Positions 11,248-58,485 of a stretch of 64,000 bases of DNA are shown here, piece by piece (positions within the stretch are counted from its first letter, which is position 1; each line of letters begins with the position of its first letter). This DNA is from Flavobacteriales bacterium. GTDB taxonomy: Bacteria; Bacteroidota; Bacteroidia; Palsa-965. The DNA lies in the NCBI GenBank assembly GCA_040377305.1, contig JBEIPA010000012.1:32001-96000 (forward strand). The letters run 5' to 3'. The notes under the pieces are model-generated. The model was not told the DNA's origin, did not search any database, and saw only the letters and a list, made by a program, of their open reading frames with translations. The translations under genes and the position numbers were made by a program.

Positions 11248-11372
11248 GTGAGTTCACACATTAGTGCTTTTTGTCAGACTGAGCCTCGCTGAAGGGCGAC
11301 AACTGGCACGAATGATGAAATAGTGAGTTCACAATGTTATCCTTGTCAGACTGAGCGTAGCCGAAGGGTGAC
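11248..11372. repeat. two tandem REP-like units
   Basis: gtcagactgagcctcgctgaagggcgac (11273-11300) and gtcagactgagcgtagccgaagggtgac (11345-11372), each preceded by gtgagttcaca. Confidence 0.65.
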
Positions 11373-11396
11373 GAGGATGAAGACACAATCTCAACT

Positions 11397-12923: not shown

Positions 12924-13520
12924 TCAAGTATACGACCTGGTGTTTTTGTAATCATCAGTTAAAATGGTCGGTATTGCTGAAGTGGTATACTTTCTAAAAT
13001 CCTTGACGGTTGTTTCATACTGCACATTGAGTGCCTGAAAAGCGTCAAATTGGATTTTGGAATAAATGTTGAATTTGAAGACGTGCATCTGACCATCTAC
13101 GGTCTTAAGATAAACAAGTGCATTACCGTTACGTTCTATATCACGATGGTTGTTTCTAAAACCACAATAATGGTCATAGAATAGGAGGAAGGTGTTGATA
13201 TGTGTTAGTGCTATAGCAAGTCGCTCATCCGGTTTTGTTATCGTGATTTCGTCCAACGTAAACGTAATTGTGCCGGCATAATTGCTGGGCTTGGGCCAGT
13301 CTGGATACAACCTCCGGATGTATTTATCAGTTACGAACAACAAACTCAAGAGTAATACGACAAATACAATTCCACGAGCCTCCCTTGAAACGGGAAGTGA
13401 TTGAACGACGAGCAGCGTAATGATTGCAACAACAACTGATCGTGCGATTCGCGCTAAGCAGCCGTGGTCTGAAAGAACATTGATGTCATCACGGTACAAA
13501 TTCAACTCAACGCTATTCAT
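12924..13520 (-). CDS. hypothetical membrane protein
   Basis: 198 aa, two TM segments. Confidence 0.6.
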   Translation of the reverse strand: MNSVELNLYRDDINVLSDHGCLARIARSVVVAIITLLVVQSLPVSREARGIVFVVLLLSLLFVTDKYIRRLYPDWPKPSNYAGTITFTLDEITITKPDERLAIALTHINTFLLFYDHYCGFRNNHRDIERNGNALVYLKTVDGQMHVFKFNIYSKIQFDAFQALNVQYETTVKDFRKYTTSAIPTILTDDYKNTRSYT

Positions 13521-13608
13521 TTATTGTTGCTTATGGTTTTCGGATTGACATCATTAGCGTTTCCTTCAAATAACTATAACTGAAAAGTGGTTGGCAACAA
13601 TTACACTC

Positions 13609-14046
13609 TTATGCATCAGTTTTCGCAAGGGCAGCTACTAACTCATCAGGCCTCTTTGTGGTCAATACAACTTTTGTTAGGCTGCCTGCTTCCGAAGTAA
13701 ATTCGATTGCAACTGTTTCTTTGACCCGTTCAACGTTAACTATGTTTTTGAGCGGAACGCGGTGAAGCATCTCATACTGTTGTAGAAAACTGGCAAAAAG
13801 CAAAGGACATTTAAGCCAAAGTTCGCTGTCTGTCACAACAATGTCCAGTCCGCGACTTGTTCCGCCCAGTCTGGTCATAAGAGTCCGAGTAGAGTGTCCA
13901 GACGCAGAACGATCCCGATATTTCACCAGTACCGTTTCGATATCTGGAAATATCGCAATTGCTTTTTTTCCTCGTGTATAAGCGAGATAAAACATAGTTA
14001 GCATCACGACACACCAACAAAGAAATAATACTGTTTGACCGTTCAT
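13609..14046 (-). CDS. hypothetical protein
   Basis: 145 aa, N-terminal TM. Confidence 0.6.
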   Translation of the reverse strand: MNGQTVLFLCWCVVMLTMFYLAYTRGKKAIAIFPDIETVLVKYRDRSASGHSTRTLMTRLGGTSRGLDIVVTDSELWLKCPLLFASFLQQYEMLHRVPLKNIVNVERVKETVAIEFTSEAGSLTKVVLTTKRPDELVAALAKTDA

Positions 14047-14104
14047 TTAATCGATTTTCCAAGCATTTATATTTCACGGTGATTTTTAGAAATTCCGGAA
14101 GCAG

Positions 14105-14563
14105 TTATTTCTCACAAATTTCCTTCAGCTTCTCCAATGCTTTTGGATATTTCTCGTTCATATAACCAACAAAATCTTCTGTGGTGTCTAAGTCAACAGT
14201 AACGGTCGTGGTTCCGTTGTTTTCTTCGAACGAATAGTTTTCAAATCCGTTTGCCCACTTTTCCACCTCAGGTCCGTCTGTAATTTCCTTGTCGCCTTGT
14301 ACAAGGCCATAATGTTGGATCGAAACAAATTTGCCGGGAGTGTTTTCCGCTATCCTGGAAACCATGCCTCCCTTTTCTCCGTTCTCCGAAACTCCGACAA
14401 AAAGAATTTTGCTTCCCTTGTCCCAGCTTCCTTCGAATGTCGAGGTTGCGTTAAACAGAGCAGTCCACTGCTCATACGTTGATTTATTGCTGATGCCAAG
14501 CATCACATCGTAAACCTTAGTTGCAGTTGCATTGATGTTTACTGTGAACTGGAGTTTTTTCAT
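14105..14563 (-). CDS. SRPBCC/AHA1-like domain protein
   Basis: INA...VYDVM, FEGSWDKGSKILF, ENYSFEE..GTTTVTV, YPKALEKLKEICE. Confidence 0.85.
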   Translation of the reverse strand: MKKLQFTVNINATATKVYDVMLGISNKSTYEQWTALFNATSTFEGSWDKGSKILFVGVSENGEKGGMVSRIAENTPGKFVSIQHYGLVQGDKEITDGPEVEKWANGFENYSFEENNGTTTVTVDLDTTEDFVGYMNEKYPKALEKLKEICEK

Positions 14564-14673
14564 GGTATTGAGTTTGTTTAGATTATACAGATTGTAATTG
14601 GAATGTTATTTCAATTCATATCTCGTGATACGAAACTTCAAATGAGCATAGACTGACTTGTTTCTGCATGCAG

Positions 14674-15927
14674 TTAATATTTTATCAGTTTCGTCGTATA
14701 AGTTTTATTGGAGTCAAGTTCCCCGATGGTTAGAAAATATATTCCCGGTTGTAAACTAATTTGAACCTCTCCATTGTGTATTTCATCCGCATAAACTAAT
14801 TGACCGACGGAGTTGTAAATGCTCAGATTTATGAGTCCGGTAACTCCAATAATTTTGAATGAATTATCAATTGGATTTGGAAATATACTGATGACTGAAC
14901 CAGAATAAAGTTCGTCATACCCCACAGACGAGGAGCAGTTTGATGGAATTGAATCGGTCGAGTAAAAGTCAGTGCAATTATTACAGAATACACTCTTCAT
15001 GAAGCAACTTGCTCTTTTAGCTCTAAACACACTACTTGCGTTTCGATAAATTCCATGTCCACCTGTGGTATCGATTGTTACTTCGCTGCAAATATTATTC
15101 GCAACCAAGTCATTATGTATTGCTCTGGAACCATTGAGTGTGTAGTGCAAAAATGAATTGTCCGAATCAATCTGAACTAATGTGTCAAGTTCCCCATGAA
15201 AAGCAATGGTTGGTAGCATTTCTACACTATCAATTTCGGATTCAGTTACGCCTCCCCAATTATTAAAAATGCCTTTGAATGAATAACTGTTTGATAAATT
15301 ATTTCCTGAAGTATAAAGGTTCCCTAATTCAACACTCGTAGCATTTGCGCTATACAACAACGAGATGCTGTCAAGTTCTGATTGGTCGGCATACACCATA
15401 CCTAATGCAAGTAATGAGCCTGCACTCTGACCTCCAACAAAAATCCAATTCGTATCTATTCTAACGGCATTTGCGTTGTTAACAACAAATCTCATTGCAG
15501 CGTGTCCGTCCTGAATGGCTCTGTATCTCGCCTTATATTGCCCGTATTCAGAAAAATCATGTCCAAGTCTGTAATTGACCGATGCACATACAAAACCTCT
15601 CAATGCCAAATGAACGCATAAGTCAGCGATGTCTCCGGATTGCTTGTCTCCTGAAGAGAAACCACCACCATGAAACAACATAATAAATGGACGTTTAGGC
15701 GACGAATCAATACCAAGATTTGGATAGTAGAGATCCAGAAGCAACGTGTCTGGATTTCCTAAATAATCTTGGGCGATACCATATTGAATATTTGTTCCAA
15801 TCGTAATTTCGGTTGAATCAAAGTATTGGACTTCGGTATATCTCGTATCGCTGGTGCAATACTGTCCATAAGTTTCTCCAATCAAAAGAAATATGGCCGA
15901 TGCAAGGACTAAAAATTTGGGTGTCAT
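14674..15927 (-). CDS. carboxylesterase-family hydrolase with T9SS type A C-terminal domain
   Basis: HGGGF, VNYRLG, GGQSAG, FHGELD, GHG; C-terminal FPNP...GIYFLTI. Confidence 0.85.
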   Translation of the reverse strand: MTPKFLVLASAIFLLIGETYGQYCTSDTRYTEVQYFDSTEITIGTNIQYGIAQDYLGNPDTLLLDLYYPNLGIDSSPKRPFIMLFHGGGFSSGDKQSGDIADLCVHLALRGFVCASVNYRLGHDFSEYGQYKARYRAIQDGHAAMRFVVNNANAVRIDTNWIFVGGQSAGSLLALGMVYADQSELDSISLLYSANATSVELGNLYTSGNNLSNSYSFKGIFNNWGGVTESEIDSVEMLPTIAFHGELDTLVQIDSDNSFLHYTLNGSRAIHNDLVANNICSEVTIDTTGGHGIYRNASSVFRAKRASCFMKSVFCNNCTDFYSTDSIPSNCSSSVGYDELYSGSVISIFPNPIDNSFKIIGVTGLINLSIYNSVGQLVYADEIHNGEVQISLQPGIYFLTIGELDSNKTYTTKLIKY

Positions 15928-15986
15928 TGATGTTTACTTTGAATAGATGTATTAACCTCTTGTTTTATTATTTATTTGTGAGTCCT

Positions 15987-16544
15987 TCACATAGAATTTC
16001 CATCAAAGTCAATTTTATACTTTGTGCCATCGAGATTAGTAAGTTCGATCCAGTCGCTTTCAATTTTGAACACTTCTTCTCCGTCAAGTGACATTAAAAT
16101 ACCAACCTCCTTAAATTCCCAATTTATATATCCATCGCGGTCAAGTTGGGTGACTTGCAATTCTCCGTGAACCAAATAATTGTCCTTGTGTTTGAATATT
16201 TGGAAACAAGAAGCAAAGTCTGCCTCGGTTTTCCATACGAGTTCCAGTTCAGTAAGTGTTAAGCAAAAAACGGAATTGCAGCAGCAGATTAGCAGTACAT
16301 CGTCGTCAATCAATGCTGAGTTTTGAGAAACATCTGTCTTGCCACCATAGCCGATAATTATACAGTCGCTGATTAGCTTTCCATCCTGGAAGATCTTGAC
16401 ACCGTGTTTTGACGTCGGAAAGTCGTATGCCATGGATGCGAAATGCTCTTTGGAATAATTGAAGGCATTATTGTCAACGCCAGATTCGTAACCCGGTTCG
16501 TTTAACACTTCAACTATTAAGTCCTTGTATTGATATTGGCTCAT
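15987..16544 (-). CDS. hypothetical protein
   Basis: 185-aa beta-rich ORF. Confidence 0.6.
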   Translation of the reverse strand: MSQYQYKDLIVEVLNEPGYESGVDNNAFNYSKEHFASMAYDFPTSKHGVKIFQDGKLISDCIIIGYGGKTDVSQNSALIDDDVLLICCCNSVFCLTLTELELVWKTEADFASCFQIFKHKDNYLVHGELQVTQLDRDGYINWEFKEVGILMSLDGEEVFKIESDWIELTNLDGTKYKIDFDGNSM

Positions 16545-16661
16545 TCTATTGTGTTCTTATAGTCCAATGATTAGGTTAAATATCGAAATTATCTAAACAG
16601 AACATTCTTTTACTAACTATTCGATGAACACGTATTAAACTACATCCGTCCGCACCACCAT

Positions 16662-17444
16662 TTACACATTCTGATTATGAAACTTCAAAACCTTAAATCG
16701 TTCTTTTGTCCAGAGAATGGTCATTATTGAAACGGGAATAGCGAGCATGTTGAAGAACACAAAATTTTCATAAAATTTCGGGAATTCTCCAAAAACAGTT
16801 TTCACAGGTTCATTCAACGACTCATCATTTAAGAACATAATGTTTACAAGCACGGTAACCACCAGCGCAATCACCATTGGCCAGATAGAAAACAAGCCAT
16901 GTACTTTTCCGGTCTGCGTATTCTTCAACATCTCCAGGTAGCCGTATTGATTGGTAACGCCGGTCATCTGATCGCCTGTTTTTACTTTACTGTATGAACT
17001 GCTTCCTTCCAGAGTTCGGCCGGAAATAGTTATAAAATACGTAGTACGTTTTTCAAATGTACTGCTACGCGTTCCGGACCGCGGCAGGTGTGTATTCACA
17101 GTCTCTGTCTTCGATCGTTTATCGGTAACAGTGCCTGAAACAAACTGGTAATTGAGCTTGGGCTTTTTTGATCCTGGGAGCGTTTCAATTAGTTTTTGAT
17201 TTCCCCATTTCAAATCTTGCAGCGGAGAACTGAATGCAACGATTTCCTTGTCCGGATTGATTTCAAAAATGAATTCAAATTTTTGCGTGAAGTCAATTCC
17301 TGACGGGAGACTTTTACCCCGTGTTTGTAACTTAAACTTTTCTCCGTTGATCATGAGTTCGTAAACGGGGTGAGGATCTCCGTATTCATCAAAATCACGA
17401 CTGCTGTAACGTTGAATATTGGAACGTACTACTTTATTGCTCAT
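16662..17444 (-). CDS. hypothetical protein with C-terminal TM segments
   Basis: 260-aa ORF. Confidence 0.6.
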   Translation of the reverse strand: MSNKVVRSNIQRYSSRDFDEYGDPHPVYELMINGEKFKLQTRGKSLPSGIDFTQKFEFIFEINPDKEIVAFSSPLQDLKWGNQKLIETLPGSKKPKLNYQFVSGTVTDKRSKTETVNTHLPRSGTRSSTFEKRTTYFITISGRTLEGSSSYSKVKTGDQMTGVTNQYGYLEMLKNTQTGKVHGLFSIWPMVIALVVTVLVNIMFLNDESLNEPVKTVFGEFPKFYENFVFFNMLAIPVSIMTILWTKERFKVLKFHNQNV

Positions 17445-17464: not shown

Positions 17465-17493
17465 GTCTATTTGGAATATGTGCTGTTAGCGGC
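17465..17493 (-). repeat. truncated attC-like remnant (long family)
   Basis: ctatttggaatatgtgctgttagcggc resembles ctattgcaaatgtgctgttatgcg at the right end of the 22918-23049 site. Confidence 0.55.
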
Positions 17494-17498
17494 TGATT

Positions 17499-18563
17499 TC
17501 ATATTTTTAGTTTAAACTTTTCAAACTTATTTCCATTTTGTTTGTAAACTCCGTCATTGTCAGTTCCAAGCCAAATTATTCCGCTGCTGTCTTGGTAGAT
17601 AGATACTAGCAAGACATTTTCTGTACCCTTTTTTACTTCAAGGTTGGTGAGCGTTTTACCGTCATATTTCCAAACTCCACCACCATAAGTAGTCATGAAT
17701 AAATTACCATCTTGATCTACAATTCCTGAGTTGAAATAATGGGGTTTTTCTTTTCGAACACCCTTTATTATTTCATATTGTAAATTGTTCGATTCAATTT
17801 TATACTTGCTTATAAAATTGCTCAACCAAAAATATCCGTCTTTGTCTTGAATGATTGAACGAACACCGCCAGCAGTGCCATCTGGGAGAATTGAAAGTTC
17901 TTTTTCATCAAACCACATAAACGATTTTCCATCGTATCGGAACGCACCTGCTACAAAAGTTCCAAACCAAATATTTCCGTCTTTGTCTTTATTTATGCCA
18001 TAAACTGAATAAGGGTTATTGCTATTAAAAGGGCTGATTAGCGTGTCAATTCCAAACGCTTTATTTAAATCTTTCCGTGGCAATTTTAATTCAAAAAGAG
18101 AATCGCCACTATAACGGAATAAATCATTTGCATTGTAGCCAAACCATAAGTCATTCGGTAAAAGTTTCCATTGGTTATGTGACGATTTTATTGGCTTTAA
18201 AGTGGTAAATTGATTTCCGTCAAATTTGCTTATTCCTTTGTGTGTTTCGATGTATATGTTTCCGTCAGTATCTTCTTGAATACCACGGATTGAATCGTTC
18301 ACTAATCCGTCTACTGTTGTAAATTGTTTTAACTCGTTTCCATCTAAAGAATAGATACCGTTTCCATTGCTACCAAACCAATATTTTCCTTTTGAGTCTT
18401 GAAATATTCTCCAAATTTGATTATCCAGTTCAGAAATCACTTTGCCAATTTGTACAGTTTCTGTTTCAGTCTTTTTGTGTTCAGATTGCATCTGTCCTTT
18501 GCATGAGAGGAAACTAATCGAAACAAAAACTATTGAGATTGTTTTTATAGTGGTAATTGTCAT
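17499..18563 (-). CDS. two-component-regulator-propeller (Reg_prop) repeat lipoprotein; cassette 10
   Basis: Lipobox FLSC; repeated IxQDxxGxxWFG blades. Confidence 0.8.
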   Translation of the reverse strand: MTITTIKTISIVFVSISFLSCKGQMQSEHKKTETETVQIGKVISELDNQIWRIFQDSKGKYWFGSNGNGIYSLDGNELKQFTTVDGLVNDSIRGIQEDTDGNIYIETHKGISKFDGNQFTTLKPIKSSHNQWKLLPNDLWFGYNANDLFRYSGDSLFELKLPRKDLNKAFGIDTLISPFNSNNPYSVYGINKDKDGNIWFGTFVAGAFRYDGKSFMWFDEKELSILPDGTAGGVRSIIQDKDGYFWLSNFISKYKIESNNLQYEIIKGVRKEKPHYFNSGIVDQDGNLFMTTYGGGVWKYDGKTLTNLEVKKGTENVLLVSIYQDSSGIIWLGTDNDGVYKQNGNKFEKFKLKI

Positions 18564-18594: not shown

Positions 18595-18680
18595 CGCTAA
18601 CATTTCGCGGATTGGCGTCGCGCGCTTTTCCTTCTAATAAATATACGTGAAAAGCGCAAAGTGCCAATGCGCGATTAGGG
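18595..18680 (-). repeat. attC-like site, resident family (one core mutated)
   Basis: cgctaacatttcgcggattggcgtcgcgcgcttttc...gaaaagcgcaaagtgccaatgcgcgattaggg; overlaps stop codon at 18675. Confidence 0.8.
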
Positions 18681-19121
18681 GCTGATAGCTCTTATCGGTT
18701 TCCAAACGAAATAGAACGCTCCAATAAGTATGTTCACAAGCGAAATAATATAAACTGAATTATACGTTTCAGACCTATAATAACTCAATCCGGCTTCTGT
18801 GTGCATATTCACTCCGGGATGAGAATTGTCGACGATGCAAAATGCGAAAATTAGAATTCCGATAGCTTGTAATATAAAAATGGATCCTTTAGCCAATCTA
18901 CTCTTTACTTTTCGTGTCTGTCGAATAAAAACAAAGTAACAGACTGGAAAGACAACAAATAAGAAAAAGTAATTGTACATGATTGAAGTCACGTGCATAC
19001 CAAAAGTCACACCATCATGAATGTCCTTGGTCTGGATTCCAACGGAAGGGATAATCAGTGAAGAAGTCAACACGATCAGAAATGCCGATCCTAATTTATT
19101 GAGATTAGTGAAGTCTGTCAA
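18675..19121 (-). CDS. hypothetical membrane protein; cassette 9
   Basis: 148 aa, four TM segments; TTG start uncertain. Confidence 0.55.
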   Translation of the reverse strand: MTDFTNLNKLGSAFLIVLTSSLIIPSVGIQTKDIHDGVTFGMHVTSIMYNYFFLFVVFPVCYFVFIRQTRKVKSRLAKGSIFILQAIGILIFAFCIVDNSHPGVNMHTEAGLSYYRSETYNSVYIISLVNILIGAFYFVWKPIRAISP

Positions 19122-19157
19122 CGTTCTTATGTTTGGAGTCGCTCAGTGCTTTTAGCA
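19116..19157 (-). repeat. possible internally deleted attC-like remnant
   Basis: caacgttcttatgtttggagtcgc aligns loosely with taacgttttgcggattggcgccgc, followed by cagtgcttttagc. Confidence 0.35.
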
Positions 19158-19163
19158 GTAGGG

Positions 19164-19694
19164 TCACACTTCGGCTTGAAGCAGTTTGTCAATACCTCGA
19201 ATTATCAAATCGCGATGGGCATAAAATGATTTCGGAAAATCTTCGGTACCAACATGTGGGCGCTTTTCCAATGCAAACCAATTGCGGAGACCTATCAGGT
19301 TCTCTTTTTTACGTGCCAATAGATACCGTGAATCAACCGCAACCTTATAGAAATATAGTTCATCAGTGAGTGTAGCTTTCTGAATCGAACCGCATTCTAG
19401 ACATTTTATAAGGCCGATCTTTTTGTCCAGTTCATCTGTTTCGGAAAACATTAGCGGATACAGATTCATTAGCCACGTTGGATCTTTCATCCAAACTTTA
19501 CCTCCGAAAAGTTCATTTACAATTATTCCATTGTCAGGCTTATAGCACGCGGAAATTTCAGAGAAAGTCGCGTTAGTATATCGATCCTTAATTACAGCTA
19601 TGTGCTCTTCATAAATCCGACGGAATGGGAAGGTGAACTGAGCTTTAGCAGAACAGGTAGGGCAAACCACATCAATGTCATAATTAATCGTCAT
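19164..19694 (-). CDS. hypothetical protein with two CxxC motifs; cassette 8
   Basis: CPTC and CLEC, possible zinc ribbon. Confidence 0.65.
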   Translation of the reverse strand: MTINYDIDVVCPTCSAKAQFTFPFRRIYEEHIAVIKDRYTNATFSEISACYKPDNGIIVNELFGGKVWMKDPTWLMNLYPLMFSETDELDKKIGLIKCLECGSIQKATLTDELYFYKVAVDSRYLLARKKENLIGLRNWFALEKRPHVGTEDFPKSFYAHRDLIIRGIDKLLQAEV

Positions 19695-19706
19695 GTGGAC
19701 AATTAC

Positions 19707-19790
19707 GCTTAACGTTTATGGATTGGCGCCGCGCTTTTTCCTTCTAATAAATATACGTGAAAAGTGGAGGGTGACAATACGCTGTTACCC
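19707..19790 (-). repeat. attC-like site, resident family (partly degenerate)
   Basis: gcttaacgtttatggattggcgccgcgctttttccttctaataaatatacgtgaaaagtggagggtgacaatacgctgttaccc. Confidence 0.8.
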
Positions 19791-19807
19791 GTAGCAGTTG
19801 TATCAAA

Positions 19808-20170
19808 CTACTGCTTATCTGTCTCATTTTTGAACTCCTCGAGCATGCGATAAAACATATCTATTGATTCCAAATGCTGCTGTTTCGATGGTATCGTTTC
19901 CAGCATAACGTTCCAATCGATTTCTCTCGGTTCGAAGCCCATGCATTTGGCAAGAATCATATTGGCCCAACCTGCTGTGGATTCGTAATAGTCAAGTTTG
20001 CTAGCAACCCAGTCGTGAAATGGGTCTGATTGTAATTCAAATTTGTCTTCAACCAGCGCATGATGGTAACCAGAAATGTAAATGTGTATACTTTTTAAGG
20101 TGAGTTCTCCAGTGAACATTGCTGGTCGACCTTCTATTTGCTTCAACACCGGATAACAGTTCAGTATCAT
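19808..20170 (-). CDS. hypothetical protein; cassette 7
   Basis: 120-aa ORF filling the space between two repeats. Confidence 0.7.
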   Translation of the reverse strand: MILNCYPVLKQIEGRPAMFTGELTLKSIHIYISGYHHALVEDKFELQSDPFHDWVASKLDYYESTAGWANMILAKCMGFEPREIDWNVMLETIPSKQQHLESIDMFYRMLEEFKNETDKQ

Positions 20171-20177
20171 ATTTTGC

Positions 20178-20260
20178 GATTAGGGGTTTGGGGAATTGCG
20201 ACTCTCTTGTCCTTCTAATCAATATACATAAAAGCGCGTGGAGCCAATGCGCTGTTAGCA
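20178..20260 (-). repeat. attC-like site, resident family (left arm degenerate)
   Basis: Right part ccttctaatcaatatacataaaagcgcgtggagccaatgcgctgttagca conserved; left AAC core lost. Confidence 0.7.
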
Positions 20261-20264
20261 CCAG

Positions 20265-20765
20265 TTATTGTTTGCTCCGCTCTTCCCACCACTTTTTTAT
20301 TTCCTGTACTCTTGTCGAATCAGTGATAGAACAGTCGACAAAGAAATTTGGGTACGGCTCATTTTTTCGATACGAATCAATTATATTCATCACCTGCCCT
20401 CCCAATGTAGAAAAATCATCACTGCCTGGCTTCCAATCGGATGAAATTGATTCCTTGACGCATTTAGCACGCCGCTTGGATTCTATTAATGTCATCAAAT
20501 AATTTAAGTCAGATTCCTTAATCCAATCCGATTTGGCTCTGTTTCCAGTTGTCAGGCGATAAATGGTATATATTCCCCTTTCTTCGAATTTGAGCAGTTC
20601 AACATAATCTACCACTGTAATTCTGTGAAAAAAAATCCAATCGTATTTATGGCGTTTTTGCTTATAGCGGTGGGTCGCTTCATTTAAATTAGCTCTTTCC
20701 ATTGAGTCTGCATGGTCCGAACATGCTGCCAGACTAATTGCAAATATTAAGAGCAGTCTGATCAT
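20265..20765 (-). CDS. hypothetical lipoprotein; cassette 6
   Basis: Lipobox LAAC; bounded by repeats. Confidence 0.7.
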   Translation of the reverse strand: MIRLLLIFAISLAACSDHADSMERANLNEATHRYKQKRHKYDWIFFHRITVVDYVELLKFEERGIYTIYRLTTGNRAKSDWIKESDLNYLMTLIESKRRAKCVKESISSDWKPGSDDFSTLGGQVMNIIDSYRKNEPYPNFFVDCSITDSTRVQEIKKWWEERSKQ

Positions 20766-20776
20766 ATTAAAATTGG

Positions 20777-20856
20777 TGGTAACGTTTTTCGGATTGGCGC
20801 CGCGCGCTTTTCATTCTAATAAATATACGTGAAAAGAGCCCTTGAGCTGGTTAAGA
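20777..20856 (-). repeat. attC-like site, resident family (right arm degenerate)
   Basis: tggtaacgtttttcggattggcgccgcgcgcttttcattctaataaatatacgtgaaaagagcccttgagctggttaaga; overlaps stop at 20851. Confidence 0.8.
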
Positions 20857-21258
20857 ATTGGTGTTTTCCCGATGTGCCACTTTGAACAGCATTGCGATTT
20901 GAATAAGCCCAAGAACCAGGAATGGAATTGCTGTCCACAAGTAAATGTCAGTCCCTCGCCAATAGCAATCAGGAATGATGAAAAATTGATAATGGACAAT
21001 TTCAATCGTGAGGAGAATGAATCCTGCAGCGAAAAATTTGAGAGACCTTAAGTTCGAAGTTGCAATCGCTAGTATTAAGCAAAGTAGTCCGATGAAATAT
21101 ATTAGTGCTATGAAAAAACTGTCGAGGGTTGTTAGCGACAAGTTAAAAGCCATTAGTCCAATTGTAGGGAATGAGAATTTGTTGCCGCTTCTAAATTGTA
21201 TCAAAGTTAAAACGAGGCAAGCAATTTTCAGAAATAATTGACTTCTTCTGGAGATCAT
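20851..21258 (-). CDS. hypothetical membrane protein; cassette 5
   Basis: Start moved to MISRR (21258) because the longer ORF runs through the repeat; four TM segments. Confidence 0.65.
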   Translation of the reverse strand: MISRRSQLFLKIACLVLTLIQFRSGNKFSFPTIGLMAFNLSLTTLDSFFIALIYFIGLLCLILAIATSNLRSLKFFAAGFILLTIEIVHYQFFIIPDCYWRGTDIYLWTAIPFLVLGLIQIAMLFKVAHRENTNS

Positions 21259-21266
21259 ACGCTTGC

Positions 21267-21352
21267 TGCTAACGTTTTGCGGATTGGCGCCGCGCGCTTT
21301 TCCTTCCAATAAATATACGTGAAAAGCGCATGGTGCCAATGCGCTGTTAGCG
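21267..21352 (-). repeat. attC-like site, resident family (intact)
   Basis: tgctaacgttttgcggattggcgccgcgcgcttttccttccaataaatatacgtgaaaagcgcatggtgccaatgcgctgttagcg. Confidence 0.9.
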
Positions 21353-21359
21353 TATCGTG

Positions 21360-21842
21360 CTACCGACTTTTGTTCTTCGATTTATTGCGAGCTTCAAATT
21401 CTGCGATCAGGGTGTTCAATTGAATTACCTGTTCAGTATTAATTGAACCTGTTTGTTGTGCTACAACTATATTGTCGATGACATAGTCGTATTCATGAAT
21501 GTTCTTTATTTTATTTCTTCGGAGAGCATCCTGAATCGCATCCTTCTTTTTGAATTGAAGTCCCGCACTTGCAATCAATTGCCAGAATTTGTCACTGTCA
21601 GGCCCCGCAGTTTCATTCCAGTAGATTAGAAAGTCATGTTCAAGATATTTGAGACTGGCGACCTTTCTGAATTGCGGCTCAGGATTTAGTGCCAATTTCC
21701 TAGTATTGGATGAAAAGAACAAAAGTGGCTCCTTGATGGATGCAGGCAAAGTTGACGATTCAGAAACTACCTGTTCGGCAATATCGATTGCTTTAACCAA
21801 TTCATTGGCTCGCTCTTCATAAATCGACTTCTTGGTAGTCAT
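21360..21842 (-). CDS. hypothetical protein; cassette 4
   Basis: 160-aa helical ORF between two repeats. Confidence 0.75.
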   Translation of the reverse strand: MTTKKSIYEERANELVKAIDIAEQVVSESSTLPASIKEPLLFFSSNTRKLALNPEPQFRKVASLKYLEHDFLIYWNETAGPDSDKFWQLIASAGLQFKKKDAIQDALRRNKIKNIHEYDYVIDNIVVAQQTGSINTEQVIQLNTLIAEFEARNKSKNKSR

Positions 21843-21852
21843 AGGGCATGTA

Positions 21853-21939
21853 CGCTAACGTTTTGCGGATTGGCGCCGCCCGCTTTTTCCTTCTAATAAA
21901 TATACATGAAAAGCGCGTGGTGCCAATGCGCTGTTATGC
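21853..21939 (-). repeat. attC-like site, resident family (intact)
   Basis: cgctaacgttttgcggattggcgccgcccgctttttccttctaataaatatacatgaaaagcgcgtggtgccaatgcgctgttatgc. Confidence 0.9.
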
Positions 21940-21944
21940 GGTAG

Positions 21945-22388
21945 TTATTTTATCTCAGAAACGTGAATGTCGCTACATGTTATCACGTTGATGATATGTC
22001 TTGCCGTTACGACAACATAGTGCCGAATTGAACTTTCCGAATTTAATTGGAATCCCAGCGTTTCATTTCTGCAGTATGTGAGGTAAGATGATTTCGTGTA
22101 AACTCTAATGCGATCGCCGTCGTACTCGCCAAATACGCCAGCGTCATAGCTTTCGTTAACAACGTGATATGCGATATAAGACGTAAAATGTAATCGATAT
22201 AATGCGCCGGAGTCGAAATTTACCGGGTAAACCGGACCTATATCGGTTTGTGATATGTTTAAACTCTGGGAAAGTTCGGACACTTCGCCTGCAATCAGAT
22301 CAATTATCAATTCATTCTCGCTGGGTTCAAATAATTTATCAACTAACAGGTTTCGGCAAGCATTAACTATGTCGTATGGTGTTGTCAT
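21945..22388 (-). CDS. hypothetical protein; cassette 3
   Basis: 147-aa ORF between two repeats. Confidence 0.75.
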   Translation of the reverse strand: MTTPYDIVNACRNLLVDKLFEPSENELIIDLIAGEVSELSQSLNISQTDIGPVYPVNFDSGALYRLHFTSYIAYHVVNESYDAGVFGEYDGDRIRVYTKSSYLTYCRNETLGFQLNSESSIRHYVVVTARHIINVITCSDIHVSEIK

Positions 22389-22395
22389 AAATTAC

Positions 22396-22481
22396 GCATA
22401 ACGTTTTGCGGATTGGCGCCGCGCGCTTTTCCTTCTAACTAATATACATGAAAAGCGCGTGGTGCCAATGCGCTGTTAGGC
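22396..22481 (-). repeat. attC-like site, resident family (intact)
   Basis: gcataacgttttgcggattggcgccgcgcgcttttccttctaactaatatacatgaaaagcgcgtggtgccaatgcgctgttaggc; overlaps stop at 22476. Confidence 0.9.
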
Positions 22482-22904
22482 GTTGGACTTTCCTGAAGTT
22501 CCTTGAAAAACATCTTTATATTCAGGATGCTTCTTTTTGTCACTTGCCGAGAGCACGGTTCGCAATGCATTAGCGAGCACCCACTTCATGGATCGATCTT
22601 CTTCTTTATAGAAATGTTCGAGTAATTTGTCTTTCGCAATCGATCGGGCCGATTTCTCAGTTAGTGCTCTGATAATGCCTTCTCTTATACGCGAATGATG
22701 CGGAAGGTCAAGGTGTTTAACCAGGATTGGGTAGGCCTGTTCGTACGAACCGAGAAACTTGTTTTCTAAATGCTCGACAGCACGATTATTTACTAAATCA
22801 TAAACACTTTCTACAATACATCCTACGGCATTCAGTTCACGAACAAGTGTCTCTTGGTCTTTGAGAAGCATCTGATGAAATTCTTGTTTTTCAAGCTCGT
22901 TCAT
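22476..22904 (-). CDS. hypothetical protein, HEAT-repeat-like; cassette 2
   Basis: PILVKHL...IREGIIRALT...KWVLANAL pattern. Confidence 0.7.
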   Translation of the reverse strand: MNELEKQEFHQMLLKDQETLVRELNAVGCIVESVYDLVNNRAVEHLENKFLGSYEQAYPILVKHLDLPHHSRIREGIIRALTEKSARSIAKDKLLEHFYKEEDRSMKWVLANALRTVLSASDKKKHPEYKDVFQGTSGKSNA

Positions 22905-22917
22905 GTACGTGTCTTGC

Positions 22918-23049
22918 GCCTAACGTTTTGCAGATTTGCGATGGGCGGGCTTTTTAACACAACTGGTCATTCGGAGAACTGAACTTTCGGTAACCACAAA
23001 ACTGTCTGCGGAGAACGAAACCCTGCCTATTGCAAATGTGCTGTTATGC
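22918..23049 (-). repeat. attC-like site, long (~132 bp) different family
   Basis: gcctaacgttttgcagatttgcgatgggcggg ... ccctgcctattgcaaatgtgctgttatgc; same terminal architecture, unrelated interior. Confidence 0.8.
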
Positions 23050-23061
23050 GTTCGCCATTCT

Positions 23062-23673
23062 TTACTCATTGGTGATGTCCTCAATTTTAGTTGCAAATTT
23101 TCTGTTGTCCTTTGAGATATGTTCGTAGTTGTCTTGTCCAACAAAAAAACTCGAAGGTGTCCAACTGTTTGTTAAAGGAGTTTTCAAATTGTCCAAGTAA
23201 TATTGTCCTGAAACTTCAAAGTCAAGAATTGCAAGTTGAAAAGGGTAGATTTTATATAACTGTTTCAATATTGTCGCAAAGAACTTTTTCAACTCGCTAG
23301 GGACTTTTGGGTTTTCAGTCCAAGTTTTGTATTCAGAACCGAACACCTTTTCTATTGCTGCTGTGTAAAAACAAATGTCAAACCAATTAAAGCCAGTTTC
23401 TACTGGCTCGTCTTCTCGTATATTGTATGTCATAAATGGAATTGCATAATTGTCAAGGTGCAAAACTCCAATATGTTGAATATTTACAATGTCAATTGGG
23501 ATTGAATTATTATTTACGTCAAAAGGTCCTTCAACGTTTTTTAAAGACCAAATAAAGTCAGTGTAAAGCCTTATTGGTTCGTTGTCTGCACTGGGACAAA
23601 CTTGAATAGCAAGTTCGTAAAAACCACCTGTTCTTAATTCTTTGTCAAGAAGTATATCGTTACTTTTTGTCAT
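23062..23673 (-). CDS. hypothetical protein; cassette 1 (recombinase-proximal)
   Basis: 203-aa ORF between candidate attI and the long site. Confidence 0.75.
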   Translation of the reverse strand: MTKSNDILLDKELRTGGFYELAIQVCPSADNEPIRLYTDFIWSLKNVEGPFDVNNNSIPIDIVNIQHIGVLHLDNYAIPFMTYNIREDEPVETGFNWFDICFYTAAIEKVFGSEYKTWTENPKVPSELKKFFATILKQLYKIYPFQLAILDFEVSGQYYLDNLKTPLTNSWTPSSFFVGQDNYEHISKDNRKFATKIEDITNE

Positions 23674-23706: not shown

Positions 23707-23753
23707 GCATAACTAGTTTATTTGCGCTACATCGTAGCGCAAATAAACCCTAG
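23707..23753 (-). other. candidate attI-like primary recombination site
   Basis: Single core gcataac (23707-23713) abutting a perfect 15-bp inverted repeat gtttatttgcgctac-atc-gtagcgcaaataaac (23716-23748). Confidence 0.6.
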
Positions 23754-23803
23754 ATGGCTGTATTGGCGCGTAAACATCCGATTTAGCTCATACAATTTAC
23801 AAA

Positions 23804-24685
23804 TTAAAGTGAATCGAAAGGCGAACGTATTTTCCCGATTGCATGGGCGCTTACGTGGGTATAAATCTCTGTCGTTTTGCTGCTCGCATGCCCCAACAAC
23901 TCCTGAATGTATCGAAGATCTGTTCCCGACTCCAGCAGATGAGTGGCAAAACTGTGCCGTAACCAATGAAGTGTGACCGGTTTCGTAATTCCCGCTCGGG
24001 CAACACTTTGCTTCAGCACCTGCTGCAAACTCCGGGCATCGTAGGGTTGACCGCACTCTTGTCCTTCGAATAGATATTTTACAGGACGATACGATTTGAA
24101 ATATTCACGCAACTGCTCGAGAATCTTTTCACTCAACGGAACAATTCTGTCCTTACGGCCTTTCCCATTCTTAATGATGACGAGCATGCGATTCGAATCA
24201 ATATGCTCCGGCAAAAGACCGATCAATTCTCCACTGCGCAATCCGCAACTGTAAATGAGCGATAACATAGCTTTGTGCTTGGTATTTATTGTGCGTGTAA
24301 GCAGAAGCTTTACTTCTTCTTTACTCAGCACATTCGGTAGTGGCTTTCCGCGACGCGGCCGATAGATCAATTCCGGATTCAGAATCTTATTGTGCAGAAT
24401 CCGGAAGTACAACTTTATTGCGTTGATACATTGATTCTGAAAGGACACAGACAATTCCTTCGCAATGATGTATTCCGAATTGAAACGCTGTACATCTGTG
24501 TTTGTAATCACAGAAACATCCTTGTCGCAAAAGGAAATAAATGTCCGTAAGCATTCCGTGTAAACCTTTATCGTACCATTACTATAACGGCGCGACTTCA
24601 GCCAGTCACTGAACTGTTCCATAGATGGAGTGGGTGCTCCCCGTCCGACCGGCTCGTCCGGGCGGGCATAAGTGTTCTCTTTCAT
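23804..24685 (-). CDS. tyrosine recombinase, integron-integrase-like (no IntI-specific insertion)
   Basis: YSCGLR, GKGRKDR, HWLRHSFATHLLE.GTDLRYIQELLGH, TTEIYTHV, C-terminal SPFDSL; N-terminal RRYSNGTIKVY...SFQNQCINAI. Confidence 0.93.
   Translation of the reverse strand: MKENTYARPDEPVGRGAPTPSMEQFSDWLKSRRYSNGTIKVYTECLRTFISFCDKDVSVITNTDVQRFNSEYIIAKELSVSFQNQCINAIKLYFRILHNKILNPELIYRPRRGKPLPNVLSKEEVKLLLTRTINTKHKAMLSLIYSCGLRSGELIGLLPEHIDSNRMLVIIKNGKGRKDRIVPLSEKILEQLREYFKSYRPVKYLFEGQECGQPYDARSLQQVLKQSVARAGITKPVTLHWLRHSFATHLLESGTDLRYIQELLGHASSKTTEIYTHVSAHAIGKIRSPFDSL
24640..24666. repeat. 27-bp GC-rich mini-hairpin element
   Basis: cccgtccgaccggctcgtccgggcggg; related copy at 60756-60782. Confidence 0.5.
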
Positions 24686-24765
24686 ATTTTATCTTTTTCG
24701 TAGCGTACATATAGCTGCAAAGTAAAATGATAAAAATGAAATAGCCGTTTGTAAACGTTTGTAAA

Positions 24766-24778
24766 CGGATAATCTCCG
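24766..24778. promoter_or_regulatory. putative Bacteroidota SOS (LexA-like) box
   Basis: cGGAtaatcTCCg = CGGA-N5-TCCG, about 80 bp upstream of the recombinase start. Confidence 0.5.
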
Positions 24779-24797
24779 GTATTCGACGAAATTCATT

Positions 24798-25040
24798 GTC
24801 ATCCCGATAGCTATCGGGATGAGCGTAGCCGAAGGGTGACAAGTGAAGGCCAGACTGAACGTATCCAGATAGCGATCGGGAGACGGGTGATAAGCAGCGT
24901 AGTCGAATTCACTTCTGTTGATCTTGGTACATTGTCAGATTGAGCACTTCGACAGGCTCAGCACAGGCTTCGCCGAAGGTTGACAAGCAGAATTGTGAGA
25001 CTCAGCGCCTGACCGCTGTGGAGCGTAGCTGAAGGTTGAC
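24798..25040. repeat. cluster of four REP-like units with nested insertions
   Basis: gtca..tgagcg...gaagg.tgac-type units at 24798-24840, 24849-24891, 24934-24984, 24995-25040. Confidence 0.65.
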
Positions 25041-25046
25041 GAACAG

Positions 25047-25082
25047 AAAACAAAAGCCCACGAAGTTTAAACTCCGTGGGCT
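25047..25082 (-). terminator. intrinsic terminator of the large adhesin gene
   Basis: Minus strand AGCCCACGGAG-TTTAAA-CTTCGTGGGCT followed by TTTGTTTT. Confidence 0.7.
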
Positions 25083-39389: not shown

Positions 39390-41837
39390 TTACTTAGACA
39401 ACTCAATTGCCTCAGGTACAGACACTTGCTCCCCTTTATAGAAAGCAATAATGAAGCATTCCGGGAAGCCCTGAGCACGCATTTTGTCTTTCAGCGCGGT
39501 GATATCGGAATAGCTGGAAGTGCCACCTACTGTGTATCGCGTTAAGCCTTGTGTTGTGGTCGACTTCTTCAGTCCAACCACTTTATCAAACTTCGCCTGA
39601 TCTTCTGCTGATGGAGCATTCTTGTATGCGCCCAACTGAACCTGGAACTCAACAAATCCTTTCGTGCCTGCACCTTGAGCTGTATCAGGTGTCATCGGTT
39701 CAACTTTCATGTAGGTTGCTCCGGCTTTCTCGAGTGGAATTCTCTTTCCTTGTTTATACGCAACAATAAACGCTCCTGAATATCCTTTAACCAACAACGC
39801 AGCTTTCGCATCAGATGCTTCCTGGAATGTTTTGTATGAACCAGACATGTACTTGTAAAGTCCGTCATCCGTCTTGAAGTAAAGTAGATCTGGAACATCT
39901 GCGAATGTTGCTTTGGAAATCGGACGACTGAATGCACCAACCTGAACGCGGAAAGTTAATCCCGTATCATTCGGCATAGTTTTCACACCGCCGTTAGTTC
40001 CACCTGTATTTCCTCCGGTGTTGCCACCTGTATTTCCTCCGGTGTTACCACCAGTATTTCCTCCGGTGTTACCACCTGTATTTCCTCCGGTGTTGCCACC
40101 TGTATTTCCTCCGGTGTTACCACCTGTATTTCCTCCGGTGTTGCCACCTGTATTTCCTCCGGTGTTACCACCTGTATTTCCTCCGGTGTTACCACCTGTA
40201 TTTCCTCCGGTGTTGCCACCAGTATTTCCTCCGGTGTTACCACCTGTATTTCCTCCGGTGTTGCCACCTGTGTTTCCTCCGGTGTTGCCACCTGTATTTC
40301 CTCCGGTGTTGCCACCCGTATTTCCTCCGGTGTTGCCACCTGTATTTCCTCCGGTGTTACCACCTGTATTTCCTGCAGTGTTGCCAGTGAGGCCTGTTAC
40401 TTCAACCAGTTTTCCATCAGCAGTTTTGTATACGATGGTTGGCGTTTTGAATCCTTGTGCTTCCAGTGCTTTTCTTCTGCGTTCAGCTTCTACGAGATCG
40501 TAAAACTTTCCGGCAGTATATGCTGTAGATGAATCATACAACGAGTGCGTTGCAATATCCGGAACGCTGAGAAAACGCATCATCTGTTCATTGGTGATGG
40601 CGCTGTTGTAAGTCCCGAGCGAAACCATATACACTTTCCGTTCTGCTCCACCTGTCCCGGCAGTATTCTGTCCGTTGAGTTTGACATTCACTGAATGGTA
40701 TTCACCGGTTGAATCGTTGTAAAGCAACCAACGCTTGTATACGATTGAATCTGTCAACGCAATTCCATTCTCGTCGGTAAAGAATTCTTTCGGCGATTCT
40801 AGTTCCTTATCGCGATAGTCAGCCGTGTTGTCAATGTCATCATCAAGCGGACAACCGTGTATGTCAACCGAAACTCCAACAGGTGTGAGTGCGCAGGAGT
40901 CTGACAAATCGAATACGCCATCCATATCGTAGTCATCGTCATTGAACACATAAAGGCTGTCTGTCGGTGCGAATGTGTCAATCTCCTCTTTCTCTTGTCC
41001 GGTGAGATTGTAACGCATTCCGAACGAAGTCATCACGAAATGGTCATTCTTAGAATTGCCTTGACGTGCGCCCGTGCTTTGTGCAGTTATTCCGTCAACA
41101 TAATCGGTGAACGTAAAGTGGAATGTGGTTCCAACAACGGCCTGCCAACGGTCGGTCAGGTGCATCGTGAATCCAATTCCAACAGGAACGGCGAAAGAAC
41201 GTTCAGGATATCTTCCGAAGTCATCCGGATTCGTATTGCGCACATCTGTTTCGTACGTGTAATCGCGCACAAGCATAGAAGCCTGCCACGCGAAGGGATC
41301 GCTTTCGTCAATATTACGGATTGATCCATCAGACCAGTAGTAATAACGATTTCCATTTGCATCGAACAAATCTGTCTTCGATAAGAACTCGAACGATTCA
41401 ATACCAACGCTTACCCACGGCATCACGTTTCTTCTCGTGCGAAAGAAATTCTGAAAGTTGTACTCGAAATGAATTCCGCCAACACGAATTGCTGATTCGA
41501 AATTCACATTGCGTGTAATCAAACGTTCATTTGCCCCAAGCTTTCCGAAGCAGGTATAAAATCCGATGTTGAGGTAGGGAGTAAGCGTTTGATGAACCGA
41601 AAGTTCAAATCCAATTCTGCTGACCTGAAAATTTGCAAGATGCTTATCGTACACGTCGCCGTAATACGAGAACATTCCAGTACCAAGACCTACGGTTGGC
41701 TTAAAAACGAAAGGTGCCGGTTCATCGGCTACTTTCTTTTGCCACAGTCGGGGTTGGACTGTATTTTCCCGGCTGTGCATTATTGCTGTATGCAAAACCA
41801 GTAACAGGACGAAGGTTATTCTTCGCATTAATCTCAA
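39390..41837 (-). CDS. outer-membrane beta-barrel / TSP3-repeat / SPOR-domain protein with (GNTG)n linker
   Basis: Barrel-like N half, DDDYDMDGVFD...DC Ca-binding repeats, FRVQVGAF and FQVQLGAY SPOR-type motifs. Confidence 0.75.
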   Translation of the reverse strand: MRLMRRITFVLLLVLHTAIMHSRENTVQPRLWQKKVADEPAPFVFKPTVGLGTGMFSYYGDVYDKHLANFQVSRIGFELSVHQTLTPYLNIGFYTCFGKLGANERLITRNVNFESAIRVGGIHFEYNFQNFFRTRRNVMPWVSVGIESFEFLSKTDLFDANGNRYYYWSDGSIRNIDESDPFAWQASMLVRDYTYETDVRNTNPDDFGRYPERSFAVPVGIGFTMHLTDRWQAVVGTTFHFTFTDYVDGITAQSTGARQGNSKNDHFVMTSFGMRYNLTGQEKEEIDTFAPTDSLYVFNDDDYDMDGVFDLSDSCALTPVGVSVDIHGCPLDDDIDNTADYRDKELESPKEFFTDENGIALTDSIVYKRWLLYNDSTGEYHSVNVKLNGQNTAGTGGAERKVYMVSLGTYNSAITNEQMMRFLSVPDIATHSLYDSSTAYTAGKFYDLVEAERRRKALEAQGFKTPTIVYKTADGKLVEVTGLTGNTAGNTGGNTGGNTGGNTGGNTGGNTGGNTGGNTGGNTGGNTGGNTGGNTGGNTGGNTGGNTGGNTGGNTGGNTGGNTGGNTGGNTGGNTGGNTGGNTGGNTGGNTGGNTGGNTGGNTGGNTGGNTGGTNGGVKTMPNDTGLTFRVQVGAFSRPISKATFADVPDLLYFKTDDGLYKYMSGSYKTFQEASDAKAALLVKGYSGAFIVAYKQGKRIPLEKAGATYMKVEPMTPDTAQGAGTKGFVEFQVQLGAYKNAPSAEDQAKFDKVVGLKKSTTTQGLTRYTVGGTSSYSDITALKDKMRAQGFPECFIIAFYKGEQVSVPEAIELSK
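40000..40383. repeat. coding tandem repeat, 16 x 24 bp
   Basis: Unit ccacctgtatttcctccggtgtt(g/a), encoding about 32 GNTG tetrapeptides. Confidence 0.95.
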
Positions 41838-58249: not shown

Positions 58250-58265
58250 GTATGGGCAAAAAAAA

Positions 58266-58364
58266 GTGGGTAAGCTACTCATATCGCACCGCTCAACCAC
58301 CTACCCTTGCTCCCTTCCGGACCTGGGGGATTCAGCAGGAGCTGGTCGTATAAGACTTACCCGG
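58266..58364 (-). ncRNA. ffs: signal recognition particle RNA (small bacterial SRP)
   Basis: Minus strand CAGGTCCGGAAGGGAGCA helix-8 motif, GGGTAAG/CTTACCC closing stem, T run after it, TACTTTTG box at 58367-58374. Confidence 0.92.
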
Positions 58365-58485
58365 CACAAAAGTAGCAAAAGTGTGCAGTTTATCGTGCGC
58401 CGTACACAGTATTTTATTTTCCATGCTGCCAATTACCGTGAACTGCGCACTGTTTCCCTCGCACTGCGTACTTTTAGGTCGCTAG

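Follow-up and report, generated by a model that had tools for sequence, protein, structure and literature searches.

The 64-kb stretch analyzed here (the window; C19:32001-96000, on contig JBEIPA010000012.1 of the 5.18-Mb, 99.99%-complete Flavobacteriales genome GCA_040377305.1) contains an integron-like array, in which single genes alternate with attC-like hairpin sites behind an intact tyrosine recombinase gene, P0001, and an attI-like site. Comparisons of cassette ends and neighbours demonstrate, at the sequence level, a cassette logic in which the sites bound exchangeable single-gene units. The sites are probably attC-like in action as well, being cut by P0001 at the AAC/GTT core as folded single strands, presumably as the bottom (non-coding) strand; here, the enzyme, its use of single-stranded DNA, the strand cut and the path of resolution are what we infer. 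The components of the array are as follows (window coordinates; ORF, open reading frame; aa, amino acids).

23804..24685, minus strand: tyrosine recombinase P0001, 293 aa, with catalytic R150, K175, H240, R243, H266 and Y275 present
23710..23800, minus strand: attI-like site, an inverted repeat followed on the coding strand by ...GCAAATAAACTAG^TTA, with a putative crossover at 23710-23713
23062..23673, minus strand: cassette 1 ORF, 203 aa, no Pfam family, GC content 0.34
22921..23046, plus strand: long-type attC-like site, 126 bp, with the same core and 4-nt bulge
22476..22904, minus strand: cassette 2 ORF, 142 aa, whose stop codon is formed by the TAA within the TAAC of the following site
22399..22478, plus strand: 80-bp attC-like site, intact by profile and fold
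21945..22388, minus strand: cassette 3 ORF, 147 aa, with other upstream sites in runs X2 and X3
21856..21936, plus strand: 81-bp attC-like site, intact by profile and fold
21360..21842, minus strand: cassette 4 ORF, 160 aa
21270..21349, plus strand: 80-bp attC-like site, intact by profile and fold
20851..21258, minus strand: cassette 5 ORF, about 135 aa, hydrophobic
20780..20836, plus strand: attC-like copy minus its right arm, no fold
20265..20765, minus strand: cassette 6 ORF, 166 aa
about 20181..20257, plus strand: attC-like copy with a decayed left arm, no fold
19808..20170, minus strand: cassette 7 ORF, 120 aa
19710..19787, plus strand: attC-like copy with a decayed stem, no fold
18675..19694, minus strand: two ORFs, 19164-19694 (176 aa) and 18675-19121 (148 aa), between which no clear site is left
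18598..18677, plus strand: 80-bp attC-like site that folds, its right core altered to GATTA
17485..18563, minus strand: cassette with a 354-aa Reg_prop propeller ORF, whose end at 17485-17488 matches its start over 9 nt
12924..17444, minus strand: older, decayed array tail with six co-oriented ORFs and one degenerate site at 13531-13610

Single ORFs lie between the sites, all on the minus strand and co-oriented with the recombinase gene, and their GC content is 0.34-0.41 versus 0.45 for the genome. Pfam named 2 of the 16 array ORFs, leaving 14 without a family, and PADLOC gave no match among 15 window ORFs and one weak match (E 0.008) among three ORFs of contig C12. The rest of the downstream site of the Reg_prop cassette is gone. 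The 126-bp site, which adjoins on the outside the region that the original prediction had described, represents a widespread long type; its inner sequence is unrelated to that of the 80-bp type, and its geometry is shared.

All seven repeat copies announced by the original prediction were located (at 18598, 19710, about 20181, 20780, 21270, 21856 and 22399), on the plus strand with the pattern TAAC...GTTA, inside 18598-22478. A profile built from them found 14 matches in the genome (E < 1e-5; eight on C19, four on C12 and two on C17), and each of these 80-bp-type copies sits between co-oriented genes. The designation of the family as resident applies within the genus, where the 80-bp type was present in 6 of 24 genomes, but not beyond it (0 of 16 genomes of other families). 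The type also occurs, with a compensatory variant and beside other site types, at locus L043, which may overlap with the same-genus genome set. Searches of Rfam, at gathering or E-value threshold, gave no relevant family and only chance matches to miRNA-type hairpins.

Folding with DNA parameters (6-nt flanks, both strands) favored the plus strand over the coding strand in copies 22399 (−33.1 vs. −22.1 kcal/mol), 21270 (−26.6 vs. −18.5 kcal/mol), 21856 (−23.3 vs. −17.0 kcal/mol) and 18598 (−27.6 vs. −22.4 kcal/mol); these four folding copies had z values from −4.0 to −8.1 on the plus strand, which was 5-11 kcal/mol the more stable. With the same parameters no fold was found for copies 19710, 20181 and 20780 (z from −0.1 to +0.9), the first of which is decayed, while the second lacks its left arm and the third its right arm. 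The hairpin ascribed to all seven copies is thus real for four of them, but not for the three decayed ones. It consists of the TAAC/GTTA core, a G:T pair, a 4-nt bulge, three base pairs, a G:G mismatch and a long stem with two further G:T pairs, closed by an 18-nt loop. What the original prediction had read as an internal loop of gtttt opposite t forms a G:T pair with the 4-nt bulge next to it, and the 4-bp core lengthens to 9-10 paired positions when the cassette's own ends are joined. The G:G mismatch belongs to the 80-bp type and not to the wider site family, in which 35 of 59 sites are unpaired at the equivalent position or the next one. Across the genome, the folding asymmetry that had been expected was found, with the bottom strand favored in 14 of 15 sites.

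It is very improbable that the repeats are terminators, promoters or repetitive extragenic palindromic (REP)-like elements that take no part in recombination. Not one coding-strand terminator-like match was found inside any repeat, and AAAACGTT stands on the coding strand directly after the hairpin, where a terminator would need a U-run; the terminator-only alternative named in the original prediction was therefore rejected. Five of the six copies tested carry TTG-N19-TATATT(T/A) on the coding strand, near the Bacteroidota −33/−7 promoter consensus (PMC2483708), which speaks for a transcriptional role. As a family-wide function, a promoter was rejected on the finding of the promoter-like motif in just 4 of 73 wider-family sites, and neither terminator nor promoter would account for the end complementarity or the swapped neighbours described below. 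An internal promoter is a possible side role of the 80-bp type: at 21270-21349 and in its sister copies, the promoter-like TTG-N19-TATATTTA of the coding strand would read into the next cassette.

The site family was extended with sites from a survey of related recombinases, comprising the best 80 loci of at least 585 genome stretches with P0001 relatives. The alignment included 59 of 72 sites of 115-135 nt; of the 13 omitted sites, nine belong to a single locus and have a 3-nt bulge. In the aligned sites, 94.2% of 1475 cells pair, with 381 two-sided changes, versus 37.5-47.6% of cells in slid-register controls; positions 16-20, which lie outside the segment used for site selection, covary as well. 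The geometry that is conserved has the AAC/GTT core followed by a G:T pair and a 4-nt bulge, and then a stem of 20 bp in one register. A scan of offsets from −3 to +8, in which both wobble types were scored alike (strand-blind), gave 107 matches downstream of recombinases (258 kb), of which 75 have offset 4 and 15 have offset 3, and 41 matches upstream (612 kb), of which 7 have offsets 3-4; the scanned range excludes −4, so that the reverse-strand control is incomplete. According to the available text of PMC5027507, the L'' arm of classical attC sites carries two or three extrahelical bases (G, T), and each arm has a central spacer of 5-6 unpaired nt. No conserved single-base bulge, i.e., extrahelical base, was present in the 20-bp stem of the 59 aligned sites, and with its constant 4-nt bulge and its covariation the geometry is, as the original prediction held, unlike that of standard attC. 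Site lengths range from about 64 to 200 nt across related loci, which is too variable for a fixed duplex core and disfavors one.

The G:T pair beside the core occurs in 59 of 59 sites and a second one, at stem position 14, in 57 of 59, and these two invariant places coincide with G:T places in the copies of the window. Among 89 distinct related sites, the bottom strand was the more stable in 66.

A cassette derived from a circle that opens at GTT is expected to have a start complementary to its own end, and not to the start of the cassette that follows. Such complementarity was observed in the window over 8-9 nt in five of six measurable cassettes, and the sixth matched at 4 of 5 positions beyond the core; the comparison left out 3 of 13 coordinate pairs (C12 b, C12 e and C49 a), whose positions were displaced by a few bases, and the arm-profile scoring left out one site end for the same reason. 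Joining a cassette's own ends strengthened the bottom-strand fold by 2.4-4.9 kcal/mol in four of four cases. In related loci, 67 of 86 consecutive pairs had own-cassette ends matching at 5/5 positions, compared with a permutation mean of 3.5 (maximum 11 in 5000) and with 9 of 89 same-site junctions, and the misses include pairs with an undetected intervening site. The sites keep AAC/GTT, and in the circular cassette the R''/R' boxes would be complementary, the RYYY/RRRY consensus not being strictly observed.

Different neighbours were observed for cassette 3 in two other public metagenomes, runs X2 and X3; run X1, which may be the source sample, was not counted as support. A contig from run X3 of another study matches this cassette at 22255-22419 and runs into a long-type site, and a second X3 contig covers 21907-22251 together with a portion of the site downstream of the cassette. 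The X2 contig corresponds to 22188-22403 and, from 5 nt past the beginning of the core, follows the sequence of a different long-type site. The identity of cassette 3 in these contigs was 96-99%. Since the sites upstream of it differ in X2 and X3, the cassette stands behind at least three different neighbours, the border falling at the core; for this one cassette, and on short contigs, the sequences agree with travel as a unit of gene plus downstream site. Among 293 candidates from Joint Genome Institute (JGI) metagenome contigs, no cassette 3 relative was confirmed. Recombination of single-strand hairpins, which the original prediction had proposed, fits the end complementarity, the swapped neighbours, the covariation and the strand bias. 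P0001, the attI-like site and the absence of I2 from the enzyme had not figured in that prediction.

The putative insertion point lies about 90 nt past the P0001 stop codon, where an inverted repeat is followed by ...GCAAATAAACTAG^TTA and cassette 1 starts; the two ends of this first cassette match over 9 nt. By position and sequence, the GTT at 23710, next to the recombinase gene, appears as the crossover of an attI-like site. The inverted repeat itself (23712-23750) is a near-perfect 15-bp repeat with a 3-nt loop, those of relatives being longer-looped. Of 77 related loci, 64 carry the attI-like motif at a distance of about 103 nt downstream of the recombinase gene, compared with 3% of control windows. 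A motif search of the genome with up to two mismatches gave nine matches, four of the attI-like kind, so that, besides the window, the motif occurs at C12 10964, C17 200495 and C57 173. Those on C12 and C17 head cassette arrays with no recombinase nearby, and the contig of the C57 motif ends 172 nt beyond it; the C12 and C57 motifs share about 100 nt of similar upstream sequence. Searches of the orphan arrays by tblastn and blastn found no integrase remnants. Another orphan array, on C49 (L083 4802-9255), consists of two long cassettes with long-type sites, of which one cassette covers two genes; it starts at a GTT without the attI-like motif, possibly a secondary site. A single long-type site stands by itself on C4 near 18800.

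An action of another enzyme, either the host XerC/D or a transient IntI, with P0001 as a mere neighbour of the sites, is improbable. It would suit the three of four attI-like platforms, and the further arrays, that have no adjoining recombinase, and XerCD is able to act on folded single strands (PMC5027507). Against it stand the fixed distance of the attI-like motif after P0001 relatives in these 64 of 77 loci, the occurrence of sites downstream and not upstream of recombinases, the invariance of the catalytic residues in 40 aligned P0001 homologs, and the result that no IntI exceeded the cut-off anywhere in the genome.

The P0001 protein matches PF00589 and PF13495. With the integron integrase profile TIGR02249 it scored 212 bits (cut-off 265), profile positions 182-238 being unmatched, and its residues 196-219 align across VchIntI4 181-246, where P0001 is about 42 residues shorter; the IntI-specific I2 insertion, which was looked for by profile and alignment, is not present. 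In 113 of 120 related proteins the distance between KxxKxR and HxLRH is 65-68, and in the other seven another motif was matched. P0001 also fails the XerC and XerD scores (TIGR02224, 183.9, cut-off 335; TIGR02225, 196.4, cut-off 330), while reaching 220.9 bits with NF040815 (cut-off 220). Its top match by sequence and fold is XerA (5hxy, E 1e-41), with IntI4 in the top three; the predicted structure (predicted local distance difference test, pLDDT, 81; predicted template modelling score, pTM, 0.57) has an uncertain domain orientation (root-mean-square deviation, rmsd, 9-15), which limits the fold comparison to alignment lengths. The genome holds two other Xer-like genes. A P0001-type recombinase occurs in 18 of 41 related genomes, and the genome stretches that encode one number at least 585. 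Most of these relatives (about 345-400 aa) are extended at the N-terminus, unlike P0001 and its 14 closest relatives. The top match in phage records had 37.5% identity.

Two further arrangements were observed beside relatives. In loci L004, L011, L012, L036, L047, L051 and L059, an ORF directly follows the recombinase and the usual attI-like spacer is absent; six of these seven loci start with a similar reading frame. A Chryseobacterium plasmid carries, among the genes downstream of a P0001 relative, an oppositely oriented reverse transcriptase of a group II intron (L106 13614-15850), which is reminiscent of the group IIC-attC introns.

The closeness to XerA, together with the missing I2, also speaks for a different mode of action, namely that P0001 recombines double-stranded GTT cores as Xer does at dif, the hairpin having an RNA-level role (processing, stability) or being a by-product of cassette formation. 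The site arm beside GTT resembles the attI-like arm (GCCAAT / GCAAAT), and G:U pairs form in RNA too. This explanation is unlikely, though of the alternatives it deserves the most weight: the G:T pairs favor the non-coding strand and not the mRNA strand, and recombination of duplex cores would need neither a variable start complementing its own end (the 67 of 86 pairs above) nor the covariation of arms 60-200 nt apart.

If P0001 does act on folded single strands, it would cut out a gene with the site that follows it, and in the resulting circle the two ends of the cassette would together make up the paired core box. The circle would be inserted at the attI-like site by a bottom-strand cut in AAC, with replication-coupled resolution assumed by analogy, and a promoter just past the recombinase gene would express the inserted cassette. 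TAnnTTTG, which corresponds to the Bacteroidota −7 element (PMC2483708), was found after the recombinase stop codon in the sense orientation in 42 of 77 related loci and in the antisense orientation in 4. The three other attI-like platforms of the genome would likely be served by P0001 in trans. Strand marking, the task of extrahelical bases in classical attC, likely falls here to the 4-nt bulge together with the invariant G:T pairs, and the two invariant pairs could be protein contacts rather than stabilizers.

Several observations weigh against this scheme. P0001 lacks the I2 helix, which is described in PMC7790495 as necessary for cassette capture and unique to IntI. Sites were selected on arm complementarity at positions 1-15, and the pairing there is consequently partly circular. 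The related genomes of the surveys are kin, so that counts over loci are not independent, and sites were obtained from 35 of the 80 loci, many contigs stopping shortly past the recombinase gene. The X2 and X3 contigs are short and may stem from other organisms, and the cassette promoter (Pc)-like motif of the window has no exact match to TAnnTTTG. As for the strand, the median gap was a modest −1.7 kcal/mol, and 23 of 89 sites were not bottom-favoring. Without the two invariant pairs, 61 G:T stand against 40 A:C, from which it follows that the bias comes mainly from those two pairs; the claim that imperfect pairs are G:T on the plus strand and A:C on the coding strand is thus upheld in direction but is weaker than implied. 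In one stem column, 25 of 59 sites have A:C on the bottom strand and T:G on the top strand, which favors the latter. Recombination of single-stranded hairpins via the coding (top) strand would accommodate this column; without I2 nothing fixes the classical polarity, and a mirror-image mechanism could also yield co-oriented arrays. There is nevertheless only a slight chance of it, given that the two invariant wobbles pair on the bottom strand alone and that this strand is the more stable in most sites. In addition, the veb1 attC, a member of the family by score, is weakly recombined by the bottom-strand-specific IntI1 (PMC3518468; PMC5027507). Action of P0001 on the folded bottom strand is retained as the probable mode.

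P0001 relatives were also found beside two resistance genes. On plasmids, a P0001 relative of 48.6% identity lies directly before blaVEB-3 and one of 43.5% identity ('tnpF/xerD') directly before tet(X3), the annotated recombinase genes being shorter than the tblastn match in both cases. An inverted repeat and GTTAGCGG lie upstream of blaVEB-3, which is the first cassette after the P0001 relative and an attI-like hairpin (L107 5937-6062, L105 5720-6745). The veb1 attC of class 1 arrays scored 42 bits on the family arm profile (members 9.5-67.8; background maximum 17.6), and the classical attC sites of aadB, cmlA and aadA1 scored from −13 to −28; the ends of the veb1 cassette match over 10 nt. 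Described as atypical and about 50-fold less used by IntI1 than the aadB attC (PMC3518468), the veb1 attC scores as a member of the site family of P0001-type recombinases. At tet(X3) (L103 2757-4988; L104 5001-7320), a GTTATG core lies upstream and a cut-off half site of 23 bits (background maximum 20.8 in 1792) follows the gene; comparison of the two cassette ends gave no match, and the case is therefore weaker than that of veb1. The available text of PMC11194056 and PMC8635130 calls the gene in these contexts XerD and describes no cassette system.

In its order of recombinase, attI-like site and single-gene cassette array, the system resembles sedentary integrons such as the Vibrio cholerae superintegron with its repeats (VCR). 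The two also have in common the AAC/GTT core, complementary cassette ends, better folding of the bottom strand, the predominance of a single site type in each genome, decay with distance from the insertion point, and the presence of orphan arrays elsewhere. In contrast to sedentary integrons, P0001 is without I2 and is transcribed towards the array; beside the core, the sites carry a 4-nt bulge, and single extrahelical G and T bases are absent; an inverted repeat stands ahead of the attI-like site, and a Bacteroidota-type promoter motif lies past the stop codon. The system therefore works like an integron but is without two of its defining features, the I2 insertion and the extrahelical bases. 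The Xer side (XerA, XerC/XerD and the CTX-phage-type elements, which employ Xer on single strands that fold) provides the best sequence and fold matches of P0001 and likewise has a catalytic domain without the insertion, whereas, unlike Xer/dif resolvases, the P0001 gene is accessory, given its presence in 18 of the 41 related genomes, and heads a variable cassette array. The veb1 cassette of class 1 integrons fits the family profile and lies on several plasmids behind a P0001 relative and an attI-like hairpin; it differs in lying in class 1 arrays and in the one extra unpaired base and shorter bulge of its attC.

PMC8138268 describes an 'integron-like' subgroup of tyrosine recombinases in which conservation of the insertion is incomplete; the available part of that source gives no cassette arrays or sites for the insertion-less members. 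PMC9024848 reports very few integrons in Bacteroidota, and the portion at hand names Salinibacter as the sole complete integron in Bacteroidetes (IntegronFinder 2.0); a review names the phylum, in its available text without detail (PMC8618304). According to the available text of PMC7790495, it is the I2 helix that enables integron integrases to recombine hairpins of single-stranded DNA, and intermediates in their evolution are missing. No published description of the system was found in the full-text literature, most subscription journals and supplements being outside its scope.

Elsewhere in the window, clustered short palindromic REP-like repeats at 24730-25050 and 11280-11380, recurrent on many contigs, lie next to the recombinase gene and at the distal end of the array region, respectively. 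Tandem repeats of period 12/24 nt and 9 nt (39916-40467 and 42223-42479) are probably coding. The affiliation with Bacteroidota is reflected in a Bacteroidales small signal recognition particle (SRP) RNA (58264-58369, minus strand; RF04183, 105 bits), a Por secretion tail and the named relatives of the recombinase.

Taken together, the evidence leans, by a modest degree, towards an undescribed and widespread class of Bacteroidota integrons, with an I2-less Xer-like enzyme and single-stranded sites read by their bulge, which would be a sister or forerunner of the IntI integrons. One enzyme would feed several dispersed attI platforms, and the class would be a source of veb1 and probably tet(X3) cassettes for clinical plasmids and class 1 integrons. 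The system also offers an origin for these two resistance genes. Given the frequency of the recombinase among related genomes and genome stretches, a large cassette pool may escape current tools. A natural pair of I2-less enzyme and site would make the origin of integrons testable with a 293-aa protein, an 80-bp site and an attI-like site.

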